A stretch of DNA of 27,464 bases from a virus (taxonomy: Duplodnaviria > Heunggongvirae > Uroviricota > Caudoviricetes), in IMG/VR virus record IMGVR_UViG_2541047865_000002. One strand, 5' to 3'. The notes beneath the pieces were generated by a model. That model saw nothing but the letters and a program-made list of their open reading frames with translations, was not told where the DNA came from and searched no databases. The translations under genes were made by a program, and so were the position numbers. Within the stretch, counting starts at the first letter, position 1; each line of letters opens with the position of its first letter. Below are positions 4,752 through 20,353 of the stretch, in pieces.

Positions 4752-4912
4752 ACAGCTCCCCGTTTATTATTTATCTCCTCAGCCAGCCGCTGTGCTTTCA
4801 GGGGATTTCGGATAACAGAAAGGCCGGGAAATACCCAGCCTCGCTTCGTAACGGAGTAGACGAAAGTGATCGTGCCTACGCGGATATTATCGTGAGGATG
4901 TTTCATCGCCAT
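4724..4912 (-). CDS. Hypothetical phage early protein, 62 aa
   Basis: ORF immediately downstream of exo; its start overlaps the exo stop region. Confidence 0.4.
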
Positions 4913-5583
4913 TGCTCCCCAAATACAAAACCAATTTCAGCCAGTGCCTCGTCCATTTTTTCGATGAACTCCGGCACCATCTCGTCAAAACTCGCTATAT
5001 ACTTTTCATTCCGCTCAATCACGACATAATGCAGGCCTTCACGCTTCATACGCGGGTCATAGTTGGCAAAGTACCAGGCATCTTTTCGCGTCACCCACAT
5101 GCTGTACTGCACCTGGGCCATGTAAGCCGACTTTATGGCCTCGAAACCACCGAGCCGGAATTTCATGAAATCCCGGGAGGTAAACGGGCATTTCAGCTCA
5201 AGGCCATTGCCGTCACTGCATAAACCATCGGGAGAGCAGGCGGTGCGCATACTTTCGTCGCGATAGATGATCGGGGATTCAATAACATTTACGCCGGAAG
5301 TGAACTCAAACAGGGTTCTGGCGTCGTTCTCGTACTGTTTTCCCCAGGCCAGCGCTTTAGCGTTAACTTCCGGAGCCACACCGGTGCAAACCTCAGCCAG
5401 CAGGGTGTGGAAGTAGGACATTTTCATGTCAGGCCACTTCTTTCCTGATCGGGGCTTTGCTATCACGTTGTGAACTTCTGAAGCGGTGATGACGCCGAGC
5501 CGTAATTTGTGCCATGCATCATCCCCCTGTTCGACAGCTCTCACGTCGATCCCGGTACGCTGCAGGATAATGTCCGGTGTCAT
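4903..5583 (-). CDS. exo: Lambda exonuclease (Red-alpha), 226 aa
   Basis: Near-identical to lambda Exo as recalled ([65 protein letters not shown]...). Confidence 0.97.
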
Positions 5584-6667: not shown

Positions 6668-6742
6668 GGCTGAACTCCTGAAAATGGCTGTGAAAATATC
6701 GCCCGCGAAATGCCAGGCTGATTAGAAAAACAGGAAAGGGGA

Positions 6743-6949
6743 TTAGTGATTCAGGCCGTTGCCGCGTCCGTCGAGAAAAACTTCCACGAGCAAGTCACGG
6801 GTATAAGTGCGCTCGATGCCGCGATGCAGATAAAGCCGTCCGCGTAAATTAGCTGATGCAGTCCAGGTACCATCTTTGTGTTTGACCAGCATTCCTGGCA
6901 TGACCGCACCGCGATTAACGGTCTGCGTTCCGTAATGTTGATGAACCAT
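6743..6949 (-). CDS. Hypothetical small protein (68 aa) in the position occupied by kil in lambda
   Basis: ORF immediately downstream of gam in the leftward operon; sequence does not match lambda Kil or CIII as I recall them; an alternative overlapping frame (6751..6984) looks less protein-like. Confidence 0.4.
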   Translation of the reverse strand: MVHQHYGTQTVNRGAVMPGMLVKHKDGTWTASANLRGRLYLHRGIERTYTRDLLVEVFLDGRGNGLNH

Positions 6950-7227
6950 AAAAACTCCTGCCCGTAAGCTGGGCTGCTGAACAAATGAGGGGTTGCGCAG
7001 TATCTGGCGGTGGATGGCCGCCGGTTGTCATAACTAAGCCGCCTTGTTGAAGCGACTGAGGTATGAGGTGTTGAGTTGATTTCAGCTGGTCACACCGACG
7101 TTCACGCGTCCGTTTCACCCCTCGCACTCCCCGGAGCCTGCTGAAATTCAAGCTGCGGATCTAAGCGGTCATCGCAACGGTGAATCAGGTGGTTGCCGTA
7201 TCGTTGTGTTGTTGCGATGAACTTATT

Positions 7228-7300
7228 TAAAACTATAGTTGTTTTATCGTCAACAACAAAAGTTGTTTTATTGGTTGTTTTAGATATAACTGGTTGTATT
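7228..7300. promoter_or_regulatory. Putative OL/pL operator-promoter region with repeated GTTGTT / AACAAC half-sites
   Basis: GTTGTT(7238..7243)...AACAAC(7252..7257)...GTTGTT(7262..7267), TGGTTGTT(7272..7279), CTGGTTGT(about 7291); same half-site family as at OR; lies between the cI terminator and the leftward early genes. Confidence 0.45.
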
Positions 7301-7390
7301 TAGGATGGATTTATTTTGTGACTTGAATCGCATAGCGATAACTGAAGCGAGGTTATGGTGGTTTTTTTAACGGTGTGTGATGAGGGGAGG

Positions 7391-7420
7391 GCAAAAGAAA
7401 ACCCGGCACGGTGACCGGGA
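7391..7420 (-). terminator. Intrinsic terminator downstream of cI (leftward)
   Basis: On the minus strand: hairpin CCCGG-TCACCGTG-CCGGG followed by TTTTCTTTT; about 120 nt downstream of the cI stop. Confidence 0.5.
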
Positions 7421-7540
7421 TTCTTACGCCGTTAGGTAAAGATATTATTGCGGTGGCTTAATATTACTACCTAGAGCAAAGATAGGAATTAGTTCTTTAC
7501 TGAATGAGCACAATGCCCAGTTGATAATTTTTAATTGGTA

Positions 7541-8230
7541 CTACCCATGCTTCCTATATGTCTGCGGCATGCTCCCAATAACCTTACCGAAGATGAACAC
7601 CCGGTTCATCTCGTCTTTCTCGATCGGGTCCCACGGTGAGTAGCTTTTGTTATCAGAGATGACCAGCAGCTTATCCTTCATCATTTGCAGGCGCTTTACA
7701 TGGGCTGTGTCGTCGTACAGAAACGCATAGATACCATCACCGTCGAAAGATTTAACAGTGATATCAACGAACAGCAGATCACCTGGTTCGATCGTTCCTG
7801 ACATGCTGTCACCACGCACGTTAATGATGCGGATATTTTCCGCCTTCCTACCATCGAACATGTGACGAGCATCGTCAAACGAGTACTCAACCGAGCGTAG
7901 AACTTCTACAAACTCACGGTTGATGACTCCCGGCCCAGCACTGACTTCTATATCAAGAACGTCAATCTTGAAGTATTTGGAATGGCTGACAGTTGATTGT
8001 ATTGGTTGCACTGTACTGTCTGACATATTTCCAATGCCAGAAGATAACCATTCTGCGCGCACACCCAAAGCGTTCGCGATCTCCACGATTTTAGTTGTTT
8101 GGTTAGCTTTCCCTGTTTCGATTTTCTGAATAGCAGCCTGGCTAACCCCAACCAAATCCCCAAGTGCCTTTTGTGTAAGGCCTCGCGCTAATCTGGCTTC
8201 TTTAAGTCTTTCTGAGAGTGTTGTTTTCAT
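7541..8230 (-). CDS. cI: CI-like prophage repressor: N-terminal XRE-type HTH plus C-terminal S24 (LexA-like) autopeptidase domain, 229 aa; likely leaderless start at 8230
   Basis: HTH segment LTQKALGDLVGVSQAAIQKIETGK; S24 motifs NVRGDSMSGTIEPGDLLFVD and AHVKRL (Ser/Lys dyad); the start chosen at MKTTLSERL lies inside the operator region, as with lambda pRM transcripts. Confidence 0.85.
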   Translation of the reverse strand: MKTTLSERLKEARLARGLTQKALGDLVGVSQAAIQKIETGKANQTTKIVEIANALGVRAEWLSSGIGNMSDSTVQPIQSTVSHSKYFKIDVLDIEVSAGPGVINREFVEVLRSVEYSFDDARHMFDGRKAENIRIINVRGDSMSGTIEPGDLLFVDITVKSFDGDGIYAFLYDDTAHVKRLQMMKDKLLVISDNKSYSPWDPIEKDEMNRVFIFGKVIGSMPQTYRKHG

Positions 8231-8243
8231 AGACCAAATGTAC

Positions 8244-8310
8244 AACCAAGGTTTTATTTCATCAAACGAAAATGGTTGTTGACTAAAAACAACCATAGTT
8301 TTAATCTTGG
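8244..8310. promoter_or_regulatory. Putative OR / pRM-pR operator-promoter region
   Basis: 9-bp inverted repeat ATGGTTGTT-GACTAAA-AACAACCAT (8272..8296), plus AACCAAGG (about 8244) and CTTGGTT (about 8306) half-site-like elements between the divergent cI and cro. Confidence 0.5.
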
Positions 8311-8334
8311 TTCAGATTAACCACGGAGGTTGTT

Positions 8335-8565
8335 ATGAACCCAGCAATCAAAACAGCGATCAATATAGTTGGTTCACAAAAGAAATTGGGCGATGCCTGC
8401 GAAGTTTCACAGCAGGCCGTCTATAAGTGGCTTCACAACAAAGCAAAGGTATCCCCTGAACATGTCGGCAGCATTGTTACGGCTACTGGTGGAGTTGTGA
8501 AGGCGTACCAGATTCGCCCGGATCTTCCGAAGTTGTTTCCACACACCGAAAAGAACGCAGCTTAA
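8335..8565 (+). CDS. cro: Cro-like repressor (YdaS/Cro family HTH), 76 aa
   Basis: Divergent from cI across the operator region; strong SD (GGAGG) 7 nt upstream; YdaS-like pattern GSQKKLGDACEVSQQAVYKW...TGGVVKAYQIRPDL. Confidence 0.8.
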   Translation: MNPAIKTAINIVGSQKKLGDACEVSQQAVYKWLHNKAKVSPEHVGSIVTATGGVVKAYQIRPDLPKLFPHTEKNAA

Positions 8566-8577
8566 ATTTCCATTTCA

Positions 8578-8623
8578 CGCTCTTTAACAATAAGCAATCA
8601 ACTTAACAGACTGATTAACAGTC
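8578..8623 (+). promoter_or_regulatory. nutR-like element: boxA (CGCTCTTTAACA) followed by a boxB-like hairpin GACTG-ATTAA-CAGTC
   Basis: boxA 8578..8589 matches the lambdoid boxA consensus CGCTCTT(T)A; a 5-bp stem with 5-nt loop lies 19 nt downstream (8609..8623), between cro and the cII-position gene. Confidence 0.35.
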
Positions 8624-8646
8624 AATTCAAACTAAAGGAATCAATT

Positions 8647-9087
8647 ATGCAACCAATTACATACCAACAGACTAGCGGATTTACCCCGACTGCGGTGATA
8701 AATCGTTCTCAAACAAAACAGGCGCCAGGCCACGAAAAAATCCGTGATGCCGTTCGCGCCTGGTCGGCTGCAGATAATCAGGATGTTGTTGCCGCACTCA
8801 TTGTGAATGAGTATCGGGAGCTGGGCGGCGGCACCATCGATTTCCCTGATGATGTCAGCCGTGCACGCCAGAAGTTGTTCCGCTTCCTCGATAACAAATT
8901 CGATTCTGAAAAATACCGAAATAACCTGCGTGAACTGACCCCGGCAATTCTGGCGGTACTACCGCTGGAATATCGCGGCCACCTGGTTGAGCAGGATAGC
9001 TTCATGGCTCGGCTGGTTGAAATGGAAAAGGAACTCAGTGAGGCAAAGCAGGCGGTCATTCTCAACGCACCACGCACCAGAAACTGA
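8647..9087 (+). CDS. YdaT-family protein in the cII position (CII functional analogue), 146 aa
   Basis: Follows the YdaS-like cro as in Rac-type immunity regions; SD AAGGA upstream; the family assignment is from memory of YdaT-like proteins. Confidence 0.65.
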   Translation: MQPITYQQTSGFTPTAVINRSQTKQAPGHEKIRDAVRAWSAADNQDVVAALIVNEYRELGGGTIDFPDDVSRARQKLFRFLDNKFDSEKYRNNLRELTPAILAVLPLEYRGHLVEQDSFMARLVEMEKELSEAKQAVILNAPRTRN

Positions 9088-11590: not shown

Positions 11591-13096
11591 TTATCTATTT
11601 TTTTTTATTAACACATTAATTTCTTCGGTGTTTTGGAGTTGAGTTGTCTTAGAAACAAAAACTCGAATAAAGAATTTAACATAGTGATAGGGTTGAAGTA
11701 CATCGTTATACTTACATAAATCATTTATTGTATACTTGCCGCCTGTTTCTTTTTTTATTATTTTAGCTTGACTTGTATCGATATCTTTAAAGTTATCTTC
11801 AATCTGAAAATCAAGAACCCATTCATCTCCTTTTAAATTATCCTCAATGATTTTGTTGATTTTCTTAGATATATTTTGTTTATATTCTTTGTATCTGTTG
11901 TCGGAAATGTTAACATTAGAAAACGTGTGTTTTTTTTCATATATTTTTTTCCAAACATTTCTATCAACAATATCTTGAATTATAGCTTGAGAATTTTTAT
12001 CTAATGTGTTTTTAAGAGTGTTTTCTAAAAACGTTTTGTCTGGGTTTTCACGATAAAAGTGTTTGATGGACTCAATGAGAGTGTTTTTAGATTTTAAAGA
12101 GACAACATCATCAGTTTTTTTTCTAGAACACGCTTTGTTAAGCATCGCAGATAGTGCACGATTGGTCTTATGAAAATAAACTTGACTATAAAGCCCACTT
12201 CTTGCATTGGCAAATTCTAGTATTGAATCCATACCACTTTCTTTATATGCCAGGTAAACACTATTTTCAACTTTCACAGGAATAAATGACATTAATAATC
12301 GTCCATAATCATAAATCCCATATTTAACGCCGGAGAAGTAGCTATCTCTAAGTAGGTAGTCCATTCTGTCCGCATCTATAGGTGAAGATGATATGATTGA
12401 ACCTAATAAAGGATATACATTTACTCCCTCAATGTTATTTTTAAAATCATATCTTTTATCAACAATTTTTATAATGCTTTCTGGATTAATAGCCGCTATG
12501 TTTTCTTTATAGACATCGTCGTCATTTGATTTATCTTGGGCTTCATTTTTTAATTCTTCAATAATTTCTTTAATAAAAATACATGATACTTGTTCGTGGG
12601 TTAACTTGTCATTATCACTTAAAGATATAATCTTATCGTATTGTTTATTTCCTTCAGTTTTGCATTTTTCTTTGAAATCTTTTACGGATATTGCAAAACT
12701 ATCGAATTGGTGGGCAAGTGGGCCATGCCCAACATCGTGTAACAATGCTGCAATACGTAACTCCTGTATAAGACTTGAAGGCATTTTTTTTATATCTAAA
12801 TATAGATCAATGCCCATATTTTTTCGATTGTAAATTAGTGCATTTAAATCAATATTTTTTAATATTTCATACGATAAATGCATTACACCGACAGAGTGTT
12901 CAAAGCGAGAGTGCATTGCAGAAGGAAATACTTTATATAGAAACGTGTTCTGCCTGATATCTCGTAGTCGTTGGAATAAAGGATGGTCAATTATCTTTTT
13001 TTCTAGCTTAGTTATTCGAATCACTCCATGTATGGGATCTAAAAACTTCCCCAGAAGTAAGTCTTCAAAGTTCTCAAGTTTGTTTTTGTTTGTCAT
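11591..13096 (-). CDS. HD-domain dNTP triphosphohydrolase-like protein (SAMHD1/dGTPase family), 501 aa; candidate anti-phage dNTP-depletion enzyme
   Basis: HD motifs HSRFEHSVGVMHLS, ALLHDVGHGPLAHQFD and DADRMDYLLRDSYFSGVKYG; SD AAGGAAAG upstream; in AT-rich cargo antisense to the phage operon. Confidence 0.8.
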   Translation of the reverse strand: MTNKNKLENFEDLLLGKFLDPIHGVIRITKLEKKIIDHPLFQRLRDIRQNTFLYKVFPSAMHSRFEHSVGVMHLSYEILKNIDLNALIYNRKNMGIDLYLDIKKMPSSLIQELRIAALLHDVGHGPLAHQFDSFAISVKDFKEKCKTEGNKQYDKIISLSDNDKLTHEQVSCIFIKEIIEELKNEAQDKSNDDDVYKENIAAINPESIIKIVDKRYDFKNNIEGVNVYPLLGSIISSSPIDADRMDYLLRDSYFSGVKYGIYDYGRLLMSFIPVKVENSVYLAYKESGMDSILEFANARSGLYSQVYFHKTNRALSAMLNKACSRKKTDDVVSLKSKNTLIESIKHFYRENPDKTFLENTLKNTLDKNSQAIIQDIVDRNVWKKIYEKKHTFSNVNISDNRYKEYKQNISKKINKIIEDNLKGDEWVLDFQIEDNFKDIDTSQAKIIKKETGGKYTINDLCKYNDVLQPYHYVKFFIRVFVSKTTQLQNTEEINVLIKKNR

Positions 13097-13455
13097 GAGG
13101 CTTTCCTTTTGCTGTAGTTATAATACGAAATTTAAATAGTAATGATGTTTATAGTTTCAATGTGTTATCTAATGGTTAACACATTGTGATGTAGCATATC
13201 AATATGGATTCATATGTTCAATTGGTCTGTGGAGTTTAGTTATGAATAAGATTGATTCTGGTAATACTTTGTAGTTTAAGCTAGAGGCGGGATTCGTGAT
13301 GTTCAAATCAGTATGTAATGGAGGTTGTGCATTAGTACTTGCTGCTGGAAATTAAAAATAAAGTTGCAAGTAATCGACGTTTTCCGAGAGGAGAATGTAA
13401 GCATCGCTGACCAAAAAGTATCAACGATGCCTGTTTTGTTTTAACTACAAATTAA

Positions 13456-13716
13456 TTAAATTGCATCTGCAAACTCTGGGATTTTTCGCTCAAGTATGAT
13501 TGATGAGTTGCTGTTGTCGCTTTTTTTATTTTCATGATTACGAATAGCCAATGACTCATTAAAGTCTTTTGCGACTGCTGTCTCAATAAATTCAATTTCT
13601 GAATCAGAGTGTTTTTTAACAGCTTCTTTGATCTCATCCAGAGTAACATAGAAAAACTCTTTTCTACGATTTACAAGATTGACTCTCTTTTTATCGAAGA
13701 CATCATGTAGTTTTTT
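13456..13716 (-). other. -1-frame continuation of the T5orf172 domain (LHDVFDKKRVNLVNRRKEFFYVTLDEIKEAVKKH...), entered at slippery heptamer A_AAA_AAC (13710..13716); either a programmed frameshift or a homopolymer frameshift mutation
   Basis: Manual translation: the domain's expected C-terminal motifs are open for 87 codons in the -1 frame starting exactly at a 7-A run; no ATG in that frame; the zero frame stops 17 codons later. Confidence 0.6.
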
Positions 13717-14957
13717 TCTAATGATGGAGCGTCCTCCGAATAAATCATGGCATGCACATCAAAAATAAAAGGAACAGATGCATCACCAAGCTCATTTACA
13801 CGGTCTTGTGGATCAAGACGTCGTGTCATGCCTATTTTATAAACATTCTCCCCAAAAGAACCTATGTTCGAAATAATATAAACATGACCTTGTTTGGTTT
13901 GTTGTGCCATGGATAATGCTCTTTGATGCTTTGATTCAGCCTGCGACAAACTCTGTTCTAGTTCGGCAATGCGATTTTCGAGGCGCTGCTTCATGTCACC
14001 AGTAACTTTTTCCATTTCCTTTCTTGCAGCTTCAATTGCTTTTTTATAACGGCGCTCTTCTGCCTCTGCGTCTTGCATGGCCTTTTCTATTTCTCGTTGT
14101 GCACGCTCCTCCTCTCTCATTTGTGCCCTTATTTCTGCCTGTTCTTCTTTTTCTTTCTGTTTTTGCTCACGATATTCATGGGTAAGCCACAACTCCTCAA
14201 GTTTTTTATTAAGGTATTTAGTATTTATATATATGTGATTTTGCTCGTTTAGTTTATTTATGGCCTCAAATGCCTTTGTGATGCGTTCTTCCATTTTAGT
14301 GATATTTTTCCACGTGCAATTACTAATTGCAGCATCACATTCATTATTAAATGCTCTAGTAGTTAGCCTAATATTTCTGTCTGTCATTTTTTTACCCTCT
14401 GCTCGAGAGCCTTCAACAGTCCATTGGGTTGTGCAATATACTGCACCAGAGTGGGTTTTATCCCGCAGCATTAATTTCTGTTCATCCCTGATGGATTTTA
14501 TTTTGTTTTTAAATTGCTCTGAATCTTCAAAATTAAAATGAGGTTCGTAAAATCCTAGTTCGGCTAGTTCAACATCTTCTGAATAAATAGAAATTTGCTT
14601 TACTAACTTATCATATATTTCTTTCTTCTCTTTATAAGTTCTTCTTAGTTCTTGGATTTGTTTATTGATACCATCCATTTTTTCAATGGTGTTTGTTAGT
14701 TCATTATTGGCATTTTCTTTTACTTTTTGGGACTCTTCTTTTATAATGGAGCATTCTTGCTCTGTTTTCTCAATAAGCTTCTTACATTCCTCTTCCACAT
14801 TAAAATAATCTGCAAAGCGAGATTTGTATTCTTCATTTTTTTGATTGCTATCACTTAATTCTAATTGTATTTTTTTGATGCGTTTGATTGCAGCTATATA
14901 TAGAACAAGAACAACCAATAAAAATATGATTGCAAGTAATAGTGGAGTTTGAGTCAT
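13671..14957 (-). CDS. Membrane-anchored coiled-coil protein with DUF4041 and the N-terminal part of a T5orf172 (GIY-YIG-like) domain; 428 aa in the zero frame
   Basis: N-terminal TM helix LLLAIIFLLVVLVLYIAAI; long coiled-coil (EERAQREIEKAMQDAEAEERRYKK...); DUF4041-like core; C-terminal GHVYIISNIGSFGENVYKIGMTRRLDPQDRVNELGDASVPFIFDVHAMIYSEDAPSLE; SD AAGGAA upstream. Confidence 0.85.
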   Translation of the reverse strand: MTQTPLLLAIIFLLVVLVLYIAAIKRIKKIQLELSDSNQKNEEYKSRFADYFNVEEECKKLIEKTEQECSIIKEESQKVKENANNELTNTIEKMDGINKQIQELRRTYKEKKEIYDKLVKQISIYSEDVELAELGFYEPHFNFEDSEQFKNKIKSIRDEQKLMLRDKTHSGAVYCTTQWTVEGSRAEGKKMTDRNIRLTTRAFNNECDAAISNCTWKNITKMEERITKAFEAINKLNEQNHIYINTKYLNKKLEELWLTHEYREQKQKEKEEQAEIRAQMREEERAQREIEKAMQDAEAEERRYKKAIEAARKEMEKVTGDMKQRLENRIAELEQSLSQAESKHQRALSMAQQTKQGHVYIISNIGSFGENVYKIGMTRRLDPQDRVNELGDASVPFIFDVHAMIYSEDAPSLEKNYMMSSIKRESIL

Positions 14958-16788: not shown

Positions 16789-16873
16789 AGTCAGAGATAA
16801 CAATCAACTAATACTGTTTTGTTGATTTTTGCTTGTAATTGGCGTTCTGGTCTGAGTTTTGTGGAGTAAGTTG

Positions 16874-17251
16874 ATGCGTGATATTCAGATGGTTCTTGAG
16901 CGTTGGGGAGCGTGGGCGGCTAATAATCATGAAGATGTGACCTGGTCGTCCATTGCCGCCGGTTTTAAGGGATTAATTCCTTCAAAAGTAAAATCTCGCC
17001 CACAATGTTGTGACGATGACGCGATGATCATTTGCGGGTGCATGGCCCGTCTGAAAAAGAACAACAGCGATTTGCATGATTTATTGGTGGACTATTATGT
17101 CGGCGGCATGACTTTTATGGCGCTTGCACGTAAGCATGGGCGATCTGATTGTTGGGTTGGCAGGATGCTCCAGAAAGCTGAGGGCGTAGTGGAGGGTATG
17201 CTGATGGTGTTGGATCTCCGATTGGAGATGGATGCTGATTGTTCGAAATAA
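16874..17251 (+). CDS. quuD: Q-family late-gene antiterminator (DLP12 QuuD-like), 125 aa
   Basis: [62 protein letters not shown]... recalled as QuuD; sits immediately upstream of the late/lysis region. Confidence 0.9.
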
Positions 17252-17349
17252 TTAAAGGAAAAGTTGCTGTCTGATTCTCATTAGTCTAACATTTTAAATG
17301 TTGGAATCGCAACGTAGTTATTATCATATAACAGCTTGTTTCCTGATTT

Positions 17350-17378
17350 AGCCAGCCTCCCCAAAGGCTGGTTTTTTT
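17350..17378 (+). terminator. Intrinsic terminator about 100 nt downstream of the Q gene (candidate tR' of the pR' leader)
   Basis: Hairpin CCAGCC-TCCCCAAA-GGCTGG followed by TTTTTTT. Confidence 0.6.
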
Positions 17379-17406
17379 CTAATAAGTATTATTTCGGGTA
17401 GGGATT

Positions 17407-17931
17407 TTATTGTTTAACCCATAATAATTCATTGACATTGAATCCCAACTTTTGAGCGGTTCGCACATAGTCTGCTTTTACTTTATCTGGAATAGTTGGG
17501 GTCCTTGCCAGAATCCATAGGTATTCTCTGTTCGGACCACTGACAAGAGCATACTTATACTCATCATCCAGTTTGATTACATTATAGCCACCATAGAAGG
17601 GGCCAAAAAACGAAACCTTCAACGCTGCAGTTTTAGTATCTCCAGTAAAGTATGCTTTACCTTCGCTCTCGCTCCATTTATTTTTCGTTGGATCGTATCC
17701 ACGGTTAAGTACACGAATCCCTCCGTCGTTCCGTTTTCCATAAGTAGCGCTGACCTGTTCCAGACCACGTTCGAATCGGTTCTCGAGGCGAGCTATTTCA
17801 TACCACTTTCCGAGGTAGCGGTTGGCGTCAAAATTTGTAATCGGCTGCACACCTTTAGGTGGTGTCGGGACCTTACATGCTATAAGAGTGAAAGAGAGTG
17901 CAATGCCAGTCAACACAGGCCATAACTTCAT
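17407..17931 (-). CDS. Blc-like bacterial lipocalin, outer-membrane lipoprotein, 174 aa
   Basis: Signal peptide with lipobox (LIAC); strong similarity to E. coli Blc as recalled (FDANRYLGKWYEIARLENRFERGLE...SEGKAYFTGDTKTAALKVSFFGPFYGGYNVI...YLWILARTP). Confidence 0.85.
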   Translation of the reverse strand: MKLWPVLTGIALSFTLIACKVPTPPKGVQPITNFDANRYLGKWYEIARLENRFERGLEQVSATYGKRNDGGIRVLNRGYDPTKNKWSESEGKAYFTGDTKTAALKVSFFGPFYGGYNVIKLDDEYKYALVSGPNREYLWILARTPTIPDKVKADYVRTAQKLGFNVNELLWVKQ

Positions 17932-18123
17932 AATAAATCCTGTACTTTTGATAGTTGAGAGTAAGTATGAAAGATAGATGATTACGACCGATCACTTAAA
18001 GAACTTTCATACTATATTAGGAATAGTCCATAACAGAAAAATTGTCAGTGATGACGCCAGAAAGGCAATTTATTCCGTGCACTACACAGTTTATGTGTTA
18101 ATGAATTAGTCAAGGGGGAGGAT

Positions 18124-19083
18124 ATGATAAAAAAACCTGTGATTGGAATCAGCGGTTGTCTGGCCGGTTCTGCTGTTCGTTTTGATGGTGGTCACAAAAG
18201 AGCTGACTTTTTAATGGACAAATTAGTGGAATGGGTAACATTCAGACCAGTATGTCCGGAAATGGCTATAGGGCTGCCAGTTCCGCGTCCTGCTCTACGT
18301 CTTGTGCGCTCGACGCAAGGAAATATACGGATGTGTTTCAGCCACGACCAGAATGAGGATGTGACAGAGAGAATGACAGAGTTTAGTCGTTCTTATATGG
18401 ACAAATTAAAGGATGTATCGGGGTTTGTGGTTTGTGCTAAATCTCCCAGCTGTGGCATGGAGCGCGTGCGTGTCTATGATGAAAATGGTAATCGAGGTCG
18501 TAAAGATGGAGTGGGACTATTTACGAGCACTTTGATGGAAAAGTTTTCCTGGCTACCGGTTGAAGAGGATGGGCGATTACATGATCCAGTGCTTCGTGAG
18601 AATTTTGTTGAAAGAGTTTTTGCTTTGCATGAGCTCAATCACCTTTACAAGGAGAAATTATCAAGAAGAGAGTTATTAGCTTTTCATAGTCGTTATAAGC
18701 TTCAGTTGTTGGCGCATAGTCAGGCAGGCTATAAAGATATGGGACCATTTGTGGCTGCAATACACGAGTGGGCGGACCTTGAATCATACTTTGAGGTGTA
18801 TCGTGATAAGCTGATGGCGATTCTCAGAAAACCTGCATCACGTAAAAATCACACGAATGTGCTGATGCATATACAGGGGTATTTTAGTAACTACTTAAGT
18901 ACACGCCAGCGTAAAGAGTTGAGCGAGGTTATACTTAACTATCGTTCTGGCACATTACCTCTTCTTGCGCCGTTGACTCTGCTGAAGCATTATCTGGGTG
19001 AGTATCCTAATGATTACTTGCTTACACAGAATTACTTCGATCCCTATCCGGACGAACTGGCTCTAAGACTGATGGTAAATTAA
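18124..19083 (+). CDS. DUF523 (TudS-like, putative Fe-S thiouracil desulfidase) plus DUF1722 (YbgA-like) fusion protein, 319 aa
   Basis: N-terminal VIGISGCLAGSAVRFDGGHK with conserved Cys residues (C12, C44, C104/C109); C-terminal YbgA-like half; strong SD GGGGGAGGA. Confidence 0.75.
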   Translation: MIKKPVIGISGCLAGSAVRFDGGHKRADFLMDKLVEWVTFRPVCPEMAIGLPVPRPALRLVRSTQGNIRMCFSHDQNEDVTERMTEFSRSYMDKLKDVSGFVVCAKSPSCGMERVRVYDENGNRGRKDGVGLFTSTLMEKFSWLPVEEDGRLHDPVLRENFVERVFALHELNHLYKEKLSRRELLAFHSRYKLQLLAHSQAGYKDMGPFVAAIHEWADLESYFEVYRDKLMAILRKPASRKNHTNVLMHIQGYFSNYLSTRQRKELSEVILNYRSGTLPLLAPLTLLKHYLGEYPNDYLLTQNYFDPYPDELALRLMVN

Positions 19084-19425
19084 TTGTATGCGATATCATC
19101 CAAAAGGATGAGTTCCTGCATGCAGGATATTTACAATCGTAAAAACTACACTATGATACCCAGAGTGTCAGTTTGTATAAAAACTCTGTTTACGCTGAAG
19201 AAACCATTGAGATGCAACTTAAAGTTGGTAAACATGCCAGTCAAAATATATAATATTATGATTCCACGCAGCTATATATAATATAACAGATTGGTTTAAT
19301 AATTTGTCTTTGTGAGTTAAATACATAATTTTATACTTGTGATGCAATGAGATTTTCCTTATTGTTGAACTGGCGAATATTGATTTTCCACCTATACTTA
19401 CCTGGTGTAACCCCAATGATATCAG

Positions 19426-20160
19426 GTGGATAATATGCCATACATATGTTCTATCATTTTGGTGTTGAACTCGTTTGATGTCCGAATTGGTAAAGAAGAT
19501 ATTTTATTTAAAAAAGGAAGTGCTGTTCTCATTGATTACAATTTAAAAGATTTTTTTTCATCAAATATAGATCATGCAATGATCGTAGATGTTGAAGAGA
19601 AAACAGTTAATGATTTCTTTAAAAGCAACACACTCTCACCTTTTTCTGTAAGAAGGTTTTATCCGGCATACTTGATGGTGGAATGTGAAGATTTTTCATT
19701 GTTAAAGAACTTGATTGCATGCTTGAATTGTGATGGCAGAACTGTGGATTTTGTTAGAAATCAAATATCACTTGCATGTCTTGCTATCTTATCTTCAGAG
19801 AAAATAGTGCAAAGTTTTTTATTTGGATGTCTTAATAGTTTAGGAAGTAAAGTTAAGGCTATTATTCACACGGATATATCTGCAGCATGGAGACTTTGTG
19901 ATATATCTTCAAGACTGTATCTGAGTGAAAGTCTGTTAAAAAGAAAATTAAAGCACGAAGGCTTATCATTTAGTAAGTTAATTCTTGAAGAGCGAATGGT
20001 GATGGCGGAAAGGTTATTAAGCTACAATTTATATTCTGTTGGAAAAGTTACTGAGATATGCGGTTATGAAAACACGTCATATTTTGTAAGTGTTTTCAGA
20101 AGATATTTTGGTGTTCCTCCCCATCAATATTCATCAAGATTTTTTTTAGAAAAGACATGA
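19426..20160 (+). CDS. AraC/XylS-family transcriptional regulator, 244 aa
   Basis: C-terminal double HTH (…ERLLSYNLYSVGKVTEICGYENTSYFVSVFRRYFGVPPHQY); gene is visibly AT-rich with rare-codon flavour, suggesting horizontal acquisition. Confidence 0.85.
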   Translation: MDNMPYICSIILVLNSFDVRIGKEDILFKKGSAVLIDYNLKDFFSSNIDHAMIVDVEEKTVNDFFKSNTLSPFSVRRFYPAYLMVECEDFSLLKNLIACLNCDGRTVDFVRNQISLACLAILSSEKIVQSFLFGCLNSLGSKVKAIIHTDISAAWRLCDISSRLYLSESLLKRKLKHEGLSFSKLILEERMVMAERLLSYNLYSVGKVTEICGYENTSYFVSVFRRYFGVPPHQYSSRFFLEKT

Positions 20161-20227
20161 TGTAACGTGATGCGTTTTAATGATTTTGTAATTTTCGTAT
20201 TTGATAATTGTATGATGCTTTCAGCTA

Positions 20228-20258
20228 CGCCAGAATAATCGCTGGCGTTTTTCTTTTT
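20228..20258 (+). terminator. Intrinsic terminator downstream of the AraC-family gene
   Basis: Hairpin CGCCAG-AATAATCG-CTGGCG followed by TTTTTCTTTTT. Confidence 0.5.
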
Positions 20259-20353
20259 GAATAGATGTTCAAGCCTTACGCTAATGTAACTTCTATACCT
20301 TTCCTCTTCGTTCCGAACCGTGTACACCATCCGTTATTTGCGGAGGTGAGGCT

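Follow-up and report, generated by a model that had tools for sequence, protein, structure and literature searches.

A lambda-like phage represented by IMG/VR record IMGVR_UViG_2541047865_000002 (27,464 nucleotides (nt), the whole stretch being referred to as the window) carries, between its presumed leftward early promoter pL and the gene kil, a conserved 97-nt leader RNA designated element X (7173-7077, minus strand). We tentatively propose, at a little less than an even chance, that X is an antitermination RNA that acts in cis, belongs to a new sequence class and would supply early leftward antitermination. The surrounding region forms the immunity and early-control module of a lambda-like prophage family that lacks N and is very common in E. 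coli. The immunity module and its protein families are known; new are an unannotated leader RNA in the antitermination slot, which is not in Rfam and is not a put RNA, and a covarying RNA module upstream of kil. N-less lambdoid phages have been described time and again, and a 2025 survey attributed them to a presumed put-like mechanism (PMC12315714), whereas for this common prophage family a model of put finds nothing.

In the proposed sequence of events, CI and Cro would act on GTTGTT operators as in other lambdoid switches, and the pL transcript would consist of about 35 immunity-specific nt followed by X, a two-hairpin RNA module and kil-gam-bet-exo. After derepression, X would fold within this transcript and act in cis on the RNA polymerase that made it, rendering the elongating enzyme resistant to downstream terminators, in a mode likened to that of the put RNAs of HK022 and HK639, to which X is unrelated in sequence and fold. 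X would replace the role that N/nutL or putL plays in sister phages and would allow read-through past the strong leftward terminator-like sites that lie between exo and xis/int in the window (e.g., 4247-4229 and 2735-2716), towards xis/int. It is possible, though held with more doubt, that X represents a third class of lambdoid early antitermination device with a put-like action, perhaps with two mutually exclusive conformations (16-25/34-43 versus 28-37/85-94, where i = 7174 − coordinate).

Distribution of element X and its exchange with putL

Element X is nearly invariant in 155 IMG/VR loci and is present in 2210 of 5426 complete E. coli genomes (41%), in which it is never annotated. The form found in the window, subtype X1, is joined in different phages to at least two cI/cro types. 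When loci are classed by what lies within 1.5 kb upstream of the two-hairpin module, 155 have X, 29 a nutL-type boxA, 19 putL and 12 none of these, and the classes are exclusive in that no locus combines two of X, boxA and putL. A diverged subtype, X2, has exactly the same length as X1 at 83% identity; it was found in 13 viral contigs, behind at least seven different pL and operator sequences. In two of these (L207 and L527), X2 sits inside an HK639-type leader in which it has replaced putL, flanked by stretches of approximately 55 nt (5') and 60 nt (3') that are identical to HK639, and the HK639-type 5' leader also precedes boxA in HK225. This places X, nutL-type boxA and putL as alternatives in one slot.

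The surroundings of X2 are informative with regard to termination. All seven X2 loci that reach the two-hairpin module have a strong intrinsic terminator directly before it; the native terminator considered alongside X2 is ACCCGCTCCGGCGGGTTTTTT. Neither put nor boxA is found between pL and this terminator in X2 loci, the intervening genes vary from phage to phage, and X2 lies 756-1921 nt from kil. X2 is thus the sole conserved element before the terminator, which leaves X as the only conserved candidate for read-through from pL. If X does act in this manner, it would be the commonest early antitermination element of E. coli prophages, control of RNA polymerase processivity by RNA alone would have evolved on more than one occasion within a single group of phages, and X would provide a compact new antitermination part. 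With a candidate of 97 nt, a natural cassette swap with putL and a diverged subtype as a guide, the question is directly testable.

Six X2 loci (L522, L523, L524, L526, L528 and L529) share a further conserved stretch about 300 nt after X2, which begins TTTGAATAAAAAAATTAGAGGAGAAACTCAAATGAAGCACTAA and has no consistent open reading frame; it may be an additional leader element. A third subtype of X was sought with TTGAATTTCAGCAGGR, which gave at least 120 loci, and no real homologue was present among the 100 that were scanned with the covariance model of X.

Predicted structure of element X

The predicted secondary structure of X (RNAalifold, X1 and X2 together) consists of helices 7-9/49-51, 16-18 and 20-25 with 34-39 and 41-43 (helix 2), 52-57/84-90, and 61-66/75-80, and 99.1% of cells are paired when this model is applied to 26 distinct sequences. 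The differences between X1 and X2 that fall on counted pairs are all compensatory (20-39, A-U to C-G; 21-38, G-C to A-U; 65-76, A-U to G-C), and the frequent polymorphisms of X are wobble-compatible or unpaired, such as the three alleles at the bulged position 7134. Between the helices lies an invariant, purine-rich single-stranded stretch, CGGGGAGUGCGAGGGGUG. The covariance model of X (R3) gives a single match in the window, at 124 bits, and detects no X in the rightward operon, nor in 25 loci of the N-type, put-type or unclassified kind that lack X.

Several observations weigh against an antitermination role for X. The covariation goes back to one divergence, that between two clades, and the sequences that show it are also those that gave the structure; the folding energy of X is ordinary (z = −1.2 and +0.4), and that of the whole leader is not significant (z = −0.5). 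An alternative helix, 28-37/85-94, which cannot coexist with helix 2, pairs just as well, and the fold given above is therefore one of two candidates. In the window, X is fused directly to the two-hairpin module with no intrinsic terminator between them, and X1 could therefore be a relic. A second copy of X is missing from the rightward operon, despite a stretch of about 4 kb of antisense DNA before Q. The high conservation of X might merely reflect the recent spread of one module, and X may already have been described in the literature.

The two-hairpin module upstream of kil

The second conserved RNA of the leader, the two-hairpin or tL module (7066-7004, minus strand), comprises hairpin 1 (HP1, 7066-7028) and hairpin 2 (HP2, 7022-7006, GGCGG-CCAUCCA-CCGCC). 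Its minimum free energy has a z score of −4.8, and none of 200 shuffled sequences was as stable. In an alignment of 32 diverse sequences, paired cells make up 97.3%, and compensatory changes are seen at seven pairs, at some of which as many as six pair types occur; cells with double changes number 77, compared to 25.8±3.6 in shuffles (0/500), and slid controls reach at most 0.046 versus 0.36 for the real structure. Besides the window (85 bits with the covariance model of the module, R2), it is found in HK225 (87.5 bits), HK639 (75 bits), phi80 (72.9 bits), and Enterobacter and Klebsiella phages. The frequent G-U pairs and the scores of the two strands, 85 versus 21 bits, point to the leftward transcript as the strand of the module. 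The initial annotation had seen no clear N gene and no boxA in the interval downstream of pL, and existing genome annotation misses the module upstream of kil; two conserved RNA elements are in fact present in this interval.

The same two-hairpin element lies in the zone that the database record of phi80 labels as the tL1 signal and that of HK639 as a terminator. In N-, put- and X2-type phages the module directly follows an intrinsic terminator (GCGGC-UUUUU), whereas phages of the window type lack this hairpin and U-run. As no such hairpin and U-run precedes the module, and HP2 has no U-tract, the module is unlikely to terminate transcription by itself in this phage. On the more doubtful reading of X as a third class of device, this covarying module would be a second undescribed regulatory RNA, common to N-, put- and X-type phages.

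The helix closing HP1, UCAUA/UAUGA, covers an AUG (7031-7029) that opens a reading frame, MTTGGHPPP..., which is out of frame with kil in the window. Two nucleotides inserted after 6995 bring this AUG into frame with kil in most relatives, which accounts for annotations of a 96-amino-acid (aa) "Kil". The notion that MTTGGHPPP is a conserved stalling peptide encoded by an upstream open reading frame was rejected, as indels of 1-2 nt occur between the AUG and HP2 in several phages.

Absence of N, nutL and put

The initial annotation had noted the lack of a recognisable N and nutL, and this is borne out: N and nutL are both missing from the region, and no boxB is conserved there. The leftward strand from pL to kil contains no boxA at up to two mismatches, and comparison of X with 71 leaders that lack X (blastn and tblastn) gave no N-like match that might represent a remnant of N, the only match being X2. 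The sole reading frame of note, a 78-aa open reading frame with an arginine-rich N-terminus (6915..7151, minus strand), is judged not to be a gene. It matches no Pfam or PHROG family, and its only matches in a set of 5.8 billion protein clusters are three near-identical entries from E. coli. Among 78 unique leaders, the frame is interrupted by TAG (C to T at 7058) in 40 and runs in frame into kil in about 22, and in further leaders it is shifted by indels of 1, 2 or 5 nt. Common polymorphisms are distributed 5/5/3 over the codon positions (manual count), indicating that there is no coding signal. In X2, the homologous frame contains two stops and the arginine-rich motif (ARM) is gone. The supposed ARM codons coincide with helix 61-66/75-80 of X, whose pairing survives sequence change. 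That the ARM-like frame is stopped in X2 and in half of the X1 variants points to an RNA rather than a protein, and the suggestion that N is present in highly divergent form is unsupported because the frame is not conserved. The alternative offered at the time, antitermination that is RNA-based or independent of protein, is the one favoured by the evidence, with the difference that the candidate RNA resides in the pL leader (7173-7077) and not in the nutR-like site.

The put RNA of HK022 needs no protein factors for its cis action on RNA polymerase, an action that mutations in the zinc-binding domain of the β' subunit block. Element X resembles put in several respects. It occupies the putL slot exactly, approximately 45-75 nt downstream of pL, is interchangeable with putL in an otherwise identical leader, is comparable in size (75-100 nt), precedes the same arrangement of terminator and module, and is not accompanied by an antiterminator protein. 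In the proposed mechanism X, too, would be independent of protein factors. HK639 is annotated in its record with a left copy of put only, as is the case for X in the window, and thus provides a precedent for a left-only device; HK022 has a second copy, putR, after cro, where the window has only boxA and where neither X nor put was found. Yet X is unlike put in both sequence and structure, and its predicted helices differ. A covariance model of put (R1) was built from ten putL-like sequences and HK022 putR, in an alignment with seven covarying pairs, and scored 94.6 bits on HK022 putL, 95.9 on HK639 putL and 54 on putR; with filters off and at E ≤ 10, it finds nothing in the leader or after cro of the window. 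The window contains no match to Rfam at gathering score, with only chance-level matches at E ≤ 5 in 6700-8700. Rfam is blind to HK022 put as well, and its silence is therefore uninformative about put. Compared to lambda N/nut, the layout is the same, with divergent pL and pR around cI followed by cro and boxA, but the window has no N gene, no left boxA and no conserved boxB on either side.

Two further leads were dropped. A 15-mer, CGCAGCTT(G/A)AATTTC, is shared between 7157-7143 (minus strand) and 8556-8570 (plus strand) at 14 of 15 positions (E = 1.4), is absent from the type-2 immunity described below and is probably a chance match. A genome contig scan with ACGGACGCGTGAACGTC gave at least 120 matches, all of those listed being chance occurrences in high-GC genomes.

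The boxA after cro and the supposed boxB

The pR transcript contains a boxA of the rrn type (8578-8590, plus strand, CGCTCTTTAACAA) 12 nt past the cro stop codon. Its 12-mer CGCTCTTTAACA (8578-8589) has its sole exact copy in the window here, it agrees with the rrn-type sequence GCUCUUUAACAA, and GCTCTTTAACAAT is shared letter for letter, over 13 nt, with the boxA of an E. coli rrn leader (L454:308-319 and the following T). The lambdoid boxA of the initial annotation is thus genuine, and it is placed where N-bearing relatives have nutR: the same 12-mer is the nutR boxA of PA28, an N-bearing Shiga toxin phage with a Cro that is 66% identical. The slot after cro has various occupants. After the homologous YdaS-type cro of PA28 it holds a complete nutR, in which CGCTCTTTAACA is followed 11 nt on by a phage-21-like boxB; after the homologous cro of Salmonella phage UPF_BP1 it holds an HK022-type putR; in HK639 and in a second immunity type of the present family it holds a short GC hairpin and no boxA. 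The box is present in all 56 loci of the window's immunity type that were retrieved through the leader, but this conservation carries no weight because the whole spacer is nearly invariant. The second (type-2) immunity, which has the same X, CII, O, P and leader, lacks boxA, indicating that the box is not essential to the family.

The boxB-like hairpin, in contrast, does not withstand comparison with relatives. The hairpin GACTG-ATTAA-CAGTC is physically present in the window (8609-8623, plus strand), where it is created by a lineage-specific 12-nt insertion, TTAACAGACTGA (approximately 8603-8614). This insertion is absent from PhiR34_1 and IdasGreatGrand, from 55 of the 56 loci retrieved through the leader, and from 116 of 122 related loci retrieved through boxA, about 5% of which carry it; the 122 leave out locus L456, which shares 20 nt around boxA but is an unrelated low-GC phage gene. 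Since the hairpin cannot form without the insertion, it is an insertion artefact. Folding of the spacer downstream of boxA is unremarkable (z = −1.3), and no conserved boxB was found next to boxA, nor a counterpart of it on the left operon. The nutR reading thus requires correction: the possibility that the nut-like element is coincidental holds for the hairpin, which is missing from related immunity regions, and not for boxA, which is retained there and sits in the nutR slot of PA28 and the putR slot of UPF_BP1. The box is best seen as a remnant of nutR, or as a site for host Nus factors only that would recruit at most NusB-NusE without a phage protein.

Alternative explanations

It is somewhat unlikely, although a serious contender, that there is no early antitermination device at all: N and tL1 would have been lost, X and the module would be ordinary 5' untranslated elements through which the toxic kil gene and those for recombination are controlled at the level of stability, processing (RNase III, for example) or translation, and boxA would be an inert relic. 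The missing terminator before the module in X1 phages is consistent with this, as are the HP1 closing helix over an AUG that is in frame with kil in most relatives, the second immunity type that manages without boxA, and the absence of a thermodynamic signal in X. A kil-specific role fits poorly, however, with the position of X2 far from kil, upstream of variable genes and a strong terminator, and the precise swap of X with putL and the strong leftward terminators between exo and int also speak against it. Improbable is a further variant, in which X is a nut-like site for an unrecognised trans-acting factor encoded elsewhere in the phage or by the host. The invariant single-stranded purines of CGGGGAGUGCGAGGGGUG would suit such a site, and the slot also accepts nutL, but X is joined by no conserved open reading frame, X2 phages vary in the genes that follow it, kil-gam-bet-exo is all that lies downstream in X1 phages, and the right operon has no second X.

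An explanation that is unlikely, and compatible with both antitermination by X and a purely untranslated-region role, is that boxA works alone on the right, where NusB and NusE (S10) together with NusA, NusG and SuhB would form an rrn-type complex that suppresses Rho termination between cro and cII and along the antisense stretch before Q. The rrn-type boxA complex depends on NusB, NusE and SuhB, and suppresses Rho. The 13-nt identity with the rrn leader, the position just past cro in every leader-retrieved locus of this type, and the approximately 4 kb of antisense, untranslated DNA (11591-14957) that pR transcripts cross before Q are in agreement with such a role. Furthermore, rrnG boxA binds NusB:NusE with a dissociation constant of 5-8 nM, versus approximately 80-90 nM for the lambda nut boxA, i.e., about ten times tighter (PMC2800207). 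Against this stand the sister immunity type, which has no boxA with the same CII, O, P and leader, and the weightless conservation of the spacer; boxC or other rrn-like companion elements were not seen, although no search was aimed at them. Rho termination can also be stimulated by complexes of boxA and Nus factors, suhB being an example. Unlike the rrn box, the present one is located in an mRNA between two translated genes.

A very short, divergent N has become highly improbable and is largely refuted. It would be a peptide that starts at GTG 7118 (ATG in some variants), MKRTRERRCDQLK..., and binds an RNA hairpin through its ARM; the motif is similar to that at the N-termini of N of lambda and P22. 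A GGAG 8 nt upstream of the start and the occurrence of GTG/ATG and AAA/AAG variants might be taken to favour it. But the frame may end after 20 codons in one strain and run for more than 110 in another, in X2 it is broken by two stops and the motif is destroyed, the even split of polymorphisms and the lack of a family match fit no gene, and neither operon has a conserved boxB partner. The chance that the leader holds a member of the HK022 put family is next to nil. The location downstream of pL is appropriate, and there is a superficial match of GAAACGGACGCG...CGUCGG here to GAACGGCGCG...GCGUCGG in put, but the silence of the put model refutes this idea at the level of sequence and modelled structure.

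Repressor, Cro, operators and promoters

The claims of the initial annotation with regard to the immunity proteins and operators are upheld. The gene for the LexA-like cI (7541-8230, minus strand) matches HTH_3 (5e-13) and Peptidase_S24 (1e-18), and its translation contains an Ala-Gly site and a Ser/Lys dyad, in the motifs VSAGPG, GDSMSG and HVKRL, as expected at the sequence level of a self-cleaving repressor, for which cleavage is predicted. The cro gene (8335-8565, plus strand; phrog_35) belongs to the YdaS family (PF15943, 6.6e-17, 61.5 bits against a gathering cut-off of 30), and the CII-like gene (8647-9087, plus strand) belongs to the YdaT family (PF06254, 4.7e-25, 88.3 bits against a cut-off of 21). 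The switch of Rac and CP-933P has the same Cro/CII Pfam families and is likened to the present one by these families alone; the repressor here is a CI with a predicted cleavable S24 domain and not RacR, in the context of a full lambda-like genome.

The 232 nt of OL and OR together contain eight copies of GTTGTT/AACAAC versus approximately 0.15 expected (P ~7e-12), and the two operators are the densest 120-nt segments for these half-sites in the entire 27 kb. In OL (7203..7298), GTTGTT occurs at 7208, 7238, 7262 and 7274 and AACAAC at 7252, and an arrangement GTTGTT-N8-AACAAC covers the −35 hexamer of the presumed pL (7253-7225, minus strand). This promoter, inferred by reading the sequence, consists of TTGACG (7253-7248), a 17-nt spacer and TTAAAT (7230-7225), with a start near 7218; it aligns with the promoter of L207, and it was not listed by a consensus promoter scanner because position 2 of its −10 hexamer is not A. 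In OR, a perfect palindrome, ATGGTTGTT-N7-AACAACCAT (8272-8296, plus strand), overlaps the −35 hexamer of the predicted pR (8279-8307, plus strand; TTGACT at 8279-8284 and TAATCT at 8302-8307). The LexA-like CI would thus bind GTTGTT/AACAAC operators that overlap the −35 hexamers of the divergent pL and pR. The immunity-specific 5' end of the pL transcript (7185..7219, minus strand) contains a 9-nt arm, CATCGCAAC, that pairs with GTTGCGATG at 7178-7170 as a perfect inverted repeat, and the junction of variable, immunity-specific DNA with shared DNA lies near 7184. Downstream of cI lies an intrinsic terminator (7402..7419, minus strand; CCCGGTCACCGTGCCGGG followed by TTTTCTTTTG).

Genomic setting

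A prophage that is 100% identical over 6900-8700 is found in an E. coli chromosome, where it adjoins ybhC at the lambda attachment site, at which the family integrates, and has lambda-like int/xis and head genes; its RefSeq annotation is void between kil and cI. Of the 5426 complete E. coli genomes, 1134 contain 80% or more of the 6900-8700 stretch, and deposited phages that include PhiR34_1, PhiR47_2, IdasGreatGrand and Turner carry it at 93-98% identity. The leftward operon runs kil-gam-bet-exo on the minus strand, from kil (6743..6949; FtsZ inhibitor, phrog_294, 1.3e-37, "phage encoded cell division inhibitor" in RefSeq), which is its first gene in the window, to exo (4903-5583). Rightward of the CII-like gene follow O, P, the nin region and Q (16859-17251).

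A 1-nt deletion near 9075 sets the cII gene of the window apart from that of the NZ_AP022107 prophage, which otherwise shows 99% identity, and shortens the product from 179 to 146 aa; it reflects either a genuine inactivating mutation or an error in sequencing. The full-length cII of NZ_AP022107 overlaps O. The HK639 record annotates an "M3-like RNA" after cII (L223:2319-2378), of which there is no counterpart in the window owing to the overlap of cII with O. The gap from OL to the end of cI (7290-7540), the position of rexAB in lambda, contains only the cI terminator in the window, whereas relatives (loci L007-L055) have diverse inserts of 1-2 kb, including genes for GevT/GevA, kinase-like, abortive-infection-like and membrane proteins; the moron insertions of relatives between the cI terminator and OL measure 1.4-2 kb. 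The antisense stretch of the nin region (11591-14957) consists of two large leftward genes, encoding an HD-domain protein and a DUF4041/T5orf172-like protein, and may be a defence island. From Q and its terminator (17350-17373) to the lysis genes (17233-20339), the window encodes a blc-like lipocalin, a 2-thiouracil desulfurase/DUF1722 protein and an AraC-family regulator, and the RefSeq relative has an ompC/nmpC-like porin at the equivalent place, i.e., other cargo in the late-promoter moron position.

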